From contig JADLCI010000007.1 in the NCBI GenBank assembly GCA_020847275.1, forward strand, positions 188,059-252,058: a stretch of DNA of 64,000 nucleotides, given 5' to 3'. The translations under genes and the position numbers were made by a program. The notes beneath the pieces were generated by a model. It was not told where the DNA came from, did no database searches, and worked only from the letters and a program-made list of their open reading frames with translations. Shown here piece by piece: positions 20,130 to 20,335 of the stretch (positions are counted from its first letter, which is position 1; each line of letters starts with the position of its first letter). Origin of the DNA: Candidatus Nomurabacteria bacterium. Its GTDB lineage: Bacteria > Patescibacteriota > Minisyncoccia > Phycocordibacterales > JACOZG01.

Positions 20130-20335
20130 TAGTTACAGAGAATAAGGGCGTGCCCACGCCTCGAGCCCCGCTGTTAAAGAGCGGGGTGAAAAACCGGCCC
20201 CCTTGGCTTGAGAGTGCGAACTTTCAACCTTGAGGCAAGTGCCGGTAATAGTCAGAAATGACTCGGAATCACAGGTCTCGCGCAGGCGAGGCTTCAGCCA
20301 CCAGGTGGCTGACCACCAATCTATTTTGGCCCACA
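20130..20335 (+). ncRNA. candidate structured non-coding RNA (tracrRNA-like) ending in an anti-repeat at 20312-20331
   Basis: GC-rich region with several perfect hairpins (ccccgct/agcgggg; ctcgc/gcgag; cagcca/tggctg). Followed by accaccaatctattttggcc, a degenerate reverse complement of the CRISPR repeat with its central hairpin segment deleted. No ORF support. Confidence 0.3.

Follow-up and report, generated by a model that had tools for sequence, protein, structure and literature searches.

Genomic setting of the CRISPR island

The window analysed here is a 64,000-nucleotide stretch of the genome of Candidatus Nomurabacteria bacterium, a member of the Candidate Phyla Radiation (CPR), and harbours a CRISPR island of about 3.4 kb among housekeeping genes. 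The island sits between the gene of a KhpA-type KH protein (19732-20070, + strand) and trmD (23494-24144, +), with rpsP (19284-19655, +) on the one side and rpoB (from 24287, +) on the other; an RNase III gene is located further away at 13063-13734. From the KH gene onwards the island comprises a structured region, a short CRISPR array, a hairpin followed by a T-run, a Cas1 fragment, a second hairpin terminator, an ORF of 586 aa that encodes a Cas12f-like effector (21436-23196, −) and an ORF of 72 aa. The latter (23189-23407, −) is a small helical ORF that is conserved and overlaps the start of the effector gene. The Cas1 remnant (20795-21358, −) is a 187 aa protein that covers only positions 73-194 of the Cas1 profile and, relative to the homologue in the related locus L001, has suffered an internal deletion estimated by eye at about 210 nt. 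Cas1 is truncated or degraded in all loci seen, and cas2 is absent from these as it is from the locus in the window.

The array (20444-20751, +) is composed of four 36-nt repeats (20444-20479, 20512-20547, 20581-20616 and 20649-20684, all +) with the sequence GGCCAAAACTCCAATCAGTATTGGTGGTGTGGGGGC and a degenerate fifth repeat at about 20716-20751 on the same strand. Counting the stretch that precedes the degenerate repeat there are four spacers of 31-33 nt. Repeats 2-4 share 97-100% identity and the spacers differ in sequence; the 3′ tail of the repeat, GGUGUGGG, is conserved in the window and in the loci L003 and L015, with GGUGAGGG in its place in L006. The degenerate repeat lies at the Cas1-proximal end of the array, and hence the leader end faces the structured region.

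A Cas12f-like effector without canonical RuvC residues

The 586 aa protein is identified as Cas12f by PADLOC (E = 2.5e-10), and the same profile is matched by 26 of 28 aligned members of its family with E-values down to 6e-70. An exhaustive HMM search recovered 61 cluster representatives of 350-900 aa, mostly of 580-680 aa; a word-index homologue search had returned only two proteins, even with a profile as the query. Searches of Pfam and NCBIfam gave no match for the ORF, and a sequence search of the PDB gave none with the effector alone and only weak matches at the level of zinc fingers with the family profile. The AlphaFold model based on an alignment of 50 sequences reached a pLDDT of 91.8 and a pTM of 0.88 and replaced a model from two sequences with a pLDDT of 37. 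The best Foldseek matches of this model are AsCas12f (8j12_A, E = 1.2e-8), Un1Cas12f1 and CnCas12f1, all with a probability of 1.0, followed by dCas12f (9n9c), CasX, Cas12g and Cas12m2. The protein is predicted to adopt a Cas12f-like fold with a RuvC domain, the RuvC-like β-strand and helix elements of which span residues 414-573. The preliminary description of this DNA had likened the structured region to tracrRNAs of the Cas12b/e/f type, and its assignment to type V is borne out by the Cas12f-like protein next door.

The counterpart of the RuvC-I motif 'GIDLG' reads 'GVHFG', and none of the 50 aligned members has Asp or Glu at this site, which is occupied by His in 33 of them and by Leu in the window protein. 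The Glu of RuvC-II is retained in 39 of the 50 members and is replaced by Gly in the subgroup of the window, so that the window protein carries L419 and G494 at the positions of the RuvC-I Asp and the RuvC-II Glu. A CxxC...CxxC zinc finger is present in 34 of 50 members, but the window protein has no CxxC pair; it thus has neither an intact D-E-D triad of RuvC nor the zinc-finger (target nucleic-acid binding) domain, as judged at the level of an alignment to motif patterns. A possible counter-indication is that many members of the effector family have an acidic residue four positions past the RuvC-I site. The gene is under purifying selection, with a dN/dS of 0.13 against the 71% identical homologue of L001. 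From its sequence, the effector is probably a protein of the Cas12f fold that does not cut.

The structured region and its predicted transcript

The stretch 20130-20335 had been described as a series of GC-rich 5′ stem-loops that ends in a 3′ anti-repeat and is devoid of coding potential. This arrangement is indeed present, and two ORFs of 81 aa and 99 aa that extend over the region were rejected as genes since they run through the repeats and have no support. The GC content of the structured region is 0.55-0.57, compared with 0.38-0.48 in its flanks. The + strand of 20130-20335 folds with −84.1 kcal/mol (z = −4.3), a value that none of 200 shuffles attained, whereas the − strand only reaches z = −1.7, and for the longer interval 20110-20443 the difference is that between −4.15 on the + strand and −0.37 on the − strand. 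The homologous RNA of L015, which is discussed below, likewise folds better antisense to its effector gene (z = −5.36) than on the effector strand (z = −3.11). A search of Rfam 15, which the preliminary description had proposed as a check, assigned the structured region to none of the families in Rfam, either at the gathering thresholds or at E-values up to 10.

The predicted scaffold (20110-20311, +), supported by its fold z-score and by homology to L015, comprises six helices on the + strand: H1 (20146-20161), the loop of which holds a conserved GCCCAC, H2 (20165-20187), H3 (20193-20246), H4 (20250-20263), H5 (20274-20293) and H6 (20294-20312). Three hairpins recognised previously recur among these, namely ccccgct-gttaaag-agcgggg at 20166-20186, ctcgc-gcag-gcgag within 20274-20293 and cagccac-cag-gtggctg at 20294-20312. 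The anti-repeat (20312-20331) is followed by a leader or connecting domain (20332-20443, +) that contains a conserved hairpin with a 25-nt loop, H7 (20344-20390, +), and flanking segments that would lengthen the helix between anti-repeat and repeat. The conserved structure appears, from the comparison with L015, to extend beyond the anti-repeat through the leader hairpin. Predicted folding and sequence homology together support the identification of the GC-rich stretch as a tracrRNA-like scaffold RNA.

A promoter with an extended −10 element is predicted directly upstream (20074-20103, +; TTGACA, 15 nt, TGC-TAGGCT). The general form TTGAC-N15-16-TGCTAnnnT occurs five times in the window compared with 0.02 occurrences expected, and since one copy lies directly upstream of rpsP it is likely to represent the organism's own promoter form. 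The promoter is conserved in the close relatives L008 and L009, and an equivalent is found upstream of the L015 RNA. Its position would place the TSS at about 20110, and we infer that the RNA begins some 20 nt upstream of 20130, where the preliminary description had let it start. At the other end, a predicted intrinsic terminator (20758-20797, +) consists of a hairpin followed by UUUUUUU; in the window as in L001, L003, L006, L015 and L017, the U-run of this hairpin, which separates the array from the Cas1 remnant, is on that strand. Between the structured region and the array there is no promoter and no convincing terminator, and the simplest reading is therefore a single transcript of about 690 nt that runs from about 20110 to about 20797. 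The case for the + strand is made by four independent signals, which are the promoter, the U-run of the terminator, the asymmetry of the fold and the position of the degenerate repeat. Scaffold and array thus probably form one + strand transcript that is antisense to the cas genes, and the earlier suggestion that the structured region lies on the same strand as the array and could be co-transcribed with it agrees with the position of the promoter, the orientation of the terminator in six loci and the strand asymmetry of the fold.

A homologous RNA in a Saccharibacteria genome

A search for the same structured element beside homologous arrays had been suggested, and a homologous RNA was found in L015, a locus in the genome of an uncultured Saccharibacteria, a member of another phylum, the effector of which is 32% identical to that of the window. 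L015 runs from the effector through a Cas1 remnant, a terminator and two repeats to a non-coding stretch of about 370 nt, at the end of which lies a promoter of the same type. This stretch is a homologue of the window RNA, and the two share the blocks GCCCACG, GCGGGRTGAAWAAC, CTCG(G)AATCACA and GGRCGGTGAGA in the same order, with gaps between blocks of 150 versus 151 nt and 81 versus 78 nt. The last of these blocks, which belongs to H7, begins in either locus at a distance of exactly 99 nt from the first repeat. Two single-stranded blocks of the scaffold, UGAAAAAC and CGGAAUCACA, are conserved.

The six helices common to the window and L015 contain 39 base pairs, of which 18 are identical, 7 have changed on one side, 13 on both sides and 1 is broken, in what is a single pairwise comparison of two complete loci and not a statistical covariation test. 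All one-sided and two-sided changes still pair, while in a control in which the 3′ arms were slid by 1-3 nt about 40% of the positions pair with 0-3 double changes. The loops are of equal length in both loci (7 nt in H2, 4 in H5, 3 in H6 and 25 in H7). On sequence grounds, a pattern with 13 compensatory pairs would hardly be expected unless the structure of the RNA is under selection.

Most of the other related contigs do not extend over the RNA: L001-L007 and L016-L018 mostly end at or before the array, and L008 and L009 stop exactly at the edge of the island. A DNA pattern made of two conserved blocks of the RNA had no match in metagenome contigs and, in genome contigs, matched only the genome of L015 itself; a related-locus search of both kinds of contigs found nothing, and a comparison of the scaffold RNA with a plasmid collection gave no match. 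At the same KH-trmD site, L012 and L013 carry an ORF of 490 aa that was considered as a relative of the effector and rejected as unrelated, the island there being a different element.

The anti-repeat and its predicted pairing with the repeat

The 20-mer accaccaatctattttggcc stands at 20312-20331 as had been noted, where it forms a split anti-repeat (ACCACCAAUCUAUUUUGGCC, +) that is predicted to pair with positions 1-8 and 17-28 of the repeat. The predicted duplex consists of 8 bp (UUUUGGCC:GGCCAAAA), 2 bp and 9 bp (ACCACCAAU:AUUGGUGGU) around an 8-nt bulge. The distance from the end of the anti-repeat to repeat 1 is 112 nt, in keeping with the approximately 110 nt given before, and the corresponding distance to the array in L015 is 113 nt. 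The stability of this duplex had been named among the checks: it is predicted to form with −23.3 kcal/mol, and 1.7% of shuffled anti-repeats reach this value, so that a duplex beyond chance is found but the signal taken by itself is modest. When the 363-nt flank is aligned locally, with gaps, to the repeat in reverse complement, the score is 26, which is reached by 20 of 5000 shuffles, although scores of at least 26 also occur elsewhere in the 64-kb window. A scan of the whole window with RNAduplex did not single out the anti-repeat on the G-rich + strand and is uninformative, as the G-rich repeat forms many G-U duplexes. The window anti-repeat alone is therefore better than shuffles at a level of about 1 in 50 to 1 in 250, that is moderately above chance.

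The case becomes convincing only in conjunction with L015, where anti-repeat and repeat appear to have co-varied at a fixed position. The L015 anti-repeat, GGAUUUUUGUGGAUUUAGGCC, occupies the equivalent position and is predicted to form about 22 bp with its own repeat at −23.3 kcal/mol (2.3% of shuffles as good). When the partners are swapped, the duplex of the window anti-repeat with the L015 repeat falls to −14.1 kcal/mol and that of the L015 anti-repeat with the window repeat to −17.5 kcal/mol. The predicted duplexes of both loci leave the 3′ tail of the repeat unpaired.

In folds that include repeat 1 and spacer 1, the anti-repeat is joined to repeat 1 by a cis helix in the MFE as well as in the centroid structure of both loci, and thus probably pairs in cis with this repeat. 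In the window this helix is extended by the pairing of CCCACAGGGAAU with AUUCCCACAGGG, which are the flanks at 20332-20343 and 20432-20443, and in L015 by that of AAGAGAGUCG with CGAUUUUCUU. Between the loci these flanks show no sequence relationship, yet within each they are complementary, and the partner on the repeat side occurs upstream of repeat 1 only. Together with the fixed spacing of 99 nt and the conserved H7, they raise the prospect that the transcript could fold as a natural single guide that employs spacer 1, and the predicted folds suggest that the anti-repeat may act in this manner as well as in trans, in which case the RNA may not be a tracrRNA in the strict, trans-acting sense. 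A small hairpin within the repeat competes with pairing to the anti-repeat.

Proposed role of the RNA and alternative explanations

We consider it fairly likely, from sequence comparison and predicted structure, that 20110-20443 (+) is the guide-RNA scaffold, equivalent to a tracrRNA, of a divergent Cas12f-like system, the complex of which would most likely be non-cutting. It is proposed that the σ70-type promoter at 20074-20103 would drive the transcript of about 690 nt, which would include in turn the six-helix scaffold, the anti-repeat, the leader, the array and the terminator. The anti-repeat at 20312-20331 would pair with the 5′ two-thirds of the repeat and leave the spacer-side tail free. 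In the predicted fold this pairing would take place in cis with repeat 1, in a helix lengthened by the leader flanks, whereas the later repeats would presumably be paired in trans or after processing, which RNase III could carry out. By homology with Cas12f, an RNA composed of scaffold, repeat and spacer would then be loaded onto the 586 aa protein and guide it to complementary DNA. Less certain is the purpose of such a complex, which may regulate genes under the guidance of RNA, for instance as a roadblock on rnr, instead of serving as an immune nuclease.

The alternative that deserves most weight, if still an unlikely one, is that everything from the scaffold to spacer 1 is one continuous guide, that there is no separate tracrRNA and that the downstream repeat-spacer units are relics. 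The leader-specific flanks that extend the cis helix in both loci despite their divergent sequences are what would be expected of such a guide, as is the invariant distance of H7 from repeat 1; L015 retains just two repeats, and the dCas12f relatives that have been studied experimentally use single gRNAs (PMC13472631). Against this reading, repeats 2-4 are nearly identical and separated by different spacers, and the perfect genomic match belongs to spacer 2, which makes a downstream unit seem meaningful. Moreover, the anti-repeat is predicted to pair about equally well with repeats 2-4 (−23.3 kcal/mol) and with repeat 1 (−21.7 kcal/mol).

Two further explanations would deny the region any part in a guide. 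It is improbable that it is only a CRISPR leader, a former integration DNA in which the apparent anti-repeat is a decayed inverted copy of the repeat with no role as RNA. Its place at the leader end of the array, opposite the degenerate repeat, suits such an origin, and the resemblance to repeat 1 in reverse complement runs on into the upstream flank of this repeat, as it would after an inverted duplication. Against this, the compensatory changes relative to L015 and the strand-specific G-U pairing point to selection on RNA structure, the promoter is located upstream of the whole region and not beside the array, and with Cas1 decayed everywhere it was seen and no cas2, signals for integration would not be maintained. 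Less probable still is a chance neighbourhood, with the array adjoining a small RNA of no relation to it or an element in the 3′ UTR of the rpsP-KH operon. Such an element would lie where the region does, directly 3′ of the KH gene and on the same strand, but the L015 homologue lies beside an array and an effector in quite another neighbourhood, next to a gene for a type IV secretion coupling protein (TraG/TrwB-like). Furthermore, L011, a KH-trmD locus without the island, has nothing comparable between the KH gene and trmD, no alignment with the window RNA was obtained for the sequence 3′ of the L010 KH gene, and the region has its own promoter and matches no Rfam family.

If correct, this reading would provide a guide-RNA architecture for an uncharacterised family of Cas12f-like proteins of about 580-680 aa with some 60 cluster representatives in public data, for no member of which was a described RNA found. 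It would also constitute a natural intermediate between dual RNAs (tracrRNA and crRNA) and single guides, the cis linkage of which could inform the design of compact sgRNAs.

Spacer 2 and a possible role in the regulation of rnr

Spacer 2 (20549-20580, +) matches the window itself at 17383-17352 over 32 of 32 positions, in a match that is delimited exactly by the repeat borders. The protospacer (17352-17383, −) falls within codons 505-515 of rnr, the gene of RNase R (16973-18895, −), and lies on its coding strand. A crRNA from the + strand of the array would therefore have the same sense as the rnr mRNA, and its pairing partner would be the template strand of the DNA instead of the mRNA. On its 5′ side the protospacer is flanked by GGTTCAC, which is not an obvious known PAM. 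The spacer with the self-match is spacer 2 and not spacer 1, which is next to the cis-paired repeat. Neither the window nor the fetched loci contain a match to spacers 1, 3 or 4, and a comparison of the array with a phage collection gave none.

The loss of two of the three canonical RuvC carboxylates and of the zinc finger, the decay of Cas1 and the self-match to rnr together suggest that the complex most likely binds its target without cutting it. The truncated Cas1, an effector that is altered and yet under purifying selection, and a spacer directed against rnr suggest that the system has been domesticated, but the self-targeting spacer could also simply be tolerated in a decaying system. 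As a tentative proposal, which we regard as possible and put forward with less confidence than the scaffold itself, the island would represent a vertically kept, nuclease-dead Cas12f-like CPR system that has turned into an RNA-guided regulator; its natural single guide would direct the protein to the template strand of rnr 3 kb away and thereby tune the expression of this gene, and the decayed Cas1 and the near-fixed mini-array would be what remains of an immune function. The perfect match to rnr would make this a concrete and testable hypothesis of CRISPR-derived gene regulation in symbionts with reduced genomes, and a very small RNA-guided DNA binder from the CPR that is naturally non-cutting would be of practical interest for tools of the CRISPRi type.

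Relation to known systems

Like type V-F (Cas12f/Cas14) systems, the island combines a miniature effector of the Cas12f fold with what resembles the type V-F sgRNA, in which a long scaffold of several stems is followed by an anti-repeat, which engages the 5′ part of the repeat and leaves the 3′ tail and the spacer free. In addition, the conserved GCCCAC in the loop of H1 is complementary to the conserved GUGGG of the repeat tail, a contact which, we assume, could mirror the second repeat:anti-repeat contact or pseudoknot of Cas12f guides. The likeness to type V-F tracrRNAs is one of architecture, the search of Rfam 15 having given no match in the region. Unlike in type V-F, the RNA here appears to share a transcript with the array, at a constant distance and with a structured leader in between, and is predicted to pair in cis with repeat 1; the effector is without the canonical RuvC residues and the zinc finger, and the host belongs to the CPR.

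Cas12k, the effector of the type V-K CRISPR-associated transposons (CAST), is naturally nuclease-inactive and employs a long structured tracrRNA encoded next to a short array together with guides to chromosomal sites. The island resembles it in having a probably inactive type V effector, a long structured RNA, a short array and a guide that matches the host, but it contains no Tn7-like transposition genes, its effector is Cas12f-like and it shows no sign of mobility beyond the island itself. The presumed union of scaffold and guide in a single transcript is reminiscent of the ω-RNA of TnpB and the guide RNA of the TldR proteins, which are nuclease-dead and used for repression; in contrast to these, the island has true CRISPR repeats, an anti-repeat and a Cas1 remnant, and has no IS200/IS605 ends.

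The closest published parallel, described in 2026, is a cluster of CRISPR-associated Cas12f proteins that are nuclease-dead, carry RuvC mutations and a truncated C terminus, and are accompanied by covarying, structured putative guide RNAs located just upstream of small arrays (PMC13472631). The published examples come from Bacteroidetes and Chitinophagaceae, and their guides match the host chromosome, with promoters of efflux genes as the published targets (PMC13472631). The σE-linked dCas12f proteins of the same study operate with single gRNAs and without tracrRNA-like species (PMC13472631). The island resembles the CRISPR-associated cluster in its RuvC-mutated homologue beside an array and in its covarying RNA upstream, a likeness drawn from these features. 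It differs from the cluster in its CPR host and in its genomic match, which lies inside the coding region of rnr and not in a promoter.

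Effector and associated genes

At the canonical RuvC-I site, none of the 50 aligned members of the Cas12f-like effector family (A6) has an acidic amino acid and 33 carry a histidine; the RuvC-II glutamate and the zinc finger are retained in most members of the same alignment. Judging from these sequences, a non-canonical active site may be a trait of the whole effector family that extends beyond the subgroup found in the window.

The start of the effector gene is overlapped by a small ORF of 62-83 aa in five loci, namely the window (23189-23407, minus strand) and the homologous loci L001 (5790-6023), L002 (1314-1502), L003 (1464-1715) and L018 (5780-6004). 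The other copies share 25-42% identity with that of the window and a Pfam search with the small ORF gave no significant match; its product may be a partner protein.

The adjoining Cas1 fragment (20795-21358, minus strand) comprises 187 aa and compared with the 257-aa copy of L001, which itself is without the N-terminus, it has an internal deletion estimated by eye at about 210 nt. The extent of Cas1 degradation differs among L003, L006, L017 and the Saccharibacteria locus L015, and no cas2 gene was seen across the loci inspected.

Candidate scaffold RNA and CRISPR array

The loop of H1, the first helix of the scaffold RNA candidate (20146-20161, plus strand), contains a GCCCAC motif that is identical between the window and L015. 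This motif is complementary to GUGGG, the conserved 3′ tail of the repeats, and on base complementarity the two could form a pseudoknot that serves as a second contact between tracrRNA and repeat.

Spacer 2 (20549-20580) is identical at 32 of 32 positions to a stretch of the RNase R gene of the host itself (17352-17383), and the edges of the match coincide exactly with the repeat borders. The protospacer lies on the coding strand, spans codons 505-515 and is flanked on its 5′ side by GGTTCAC. For spacer 3 (20617-20648) no target was found in the window, the fetched loci or the phage collection searched. By eye, spacers 2 (here 20548-20580) and 3 share about 60% identity across their first 19 nt, which can be extended further with one indel, and TRF reports 83% matches across 2.6 whole array units, repeats included. 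Such likeness is unusual among independent spacers and suggests that an array unit was duplicated and the copies then diverged.

The extended -10 promoter form TTGAC-N15-16-TGCTAnnnT occurs five times in the window where 0.02 copies are expected, including at 19240-19268, 35198-35226, 40408-40437 and 58404-58433, and appears to be the standard promoter of this organism.

Island boundary and an alternative island

Two contigs from independent assemblies of a close relative (L008 and L009) both stop at the base equivalent to window position 20129/20130, exactly where the island and the tracrRNA candidate region begin. This shared end point suggests that the population varies here or that the edge of the island contains a repeat.

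In another CPR genome the KH-trmD site is occupied by a different island (L013 5200-6005 and 7720-8920; L012 likewise), which contains an ORF of 490 aa whose product matches an IS110-type transposase domain (E = 3.4e-5). Five tandem units, each about 400 nt long, flank this ORF; every unit has a promoter of its own (TTTACA-N14-TGCTAGTCT), a terminator and five stems whose bases are conserved and whose tops vary. An Rfam search with the units returned no match; they look like a multi-copy family of structured RNA genes, whose products are possibly guide-like or bridge-like.
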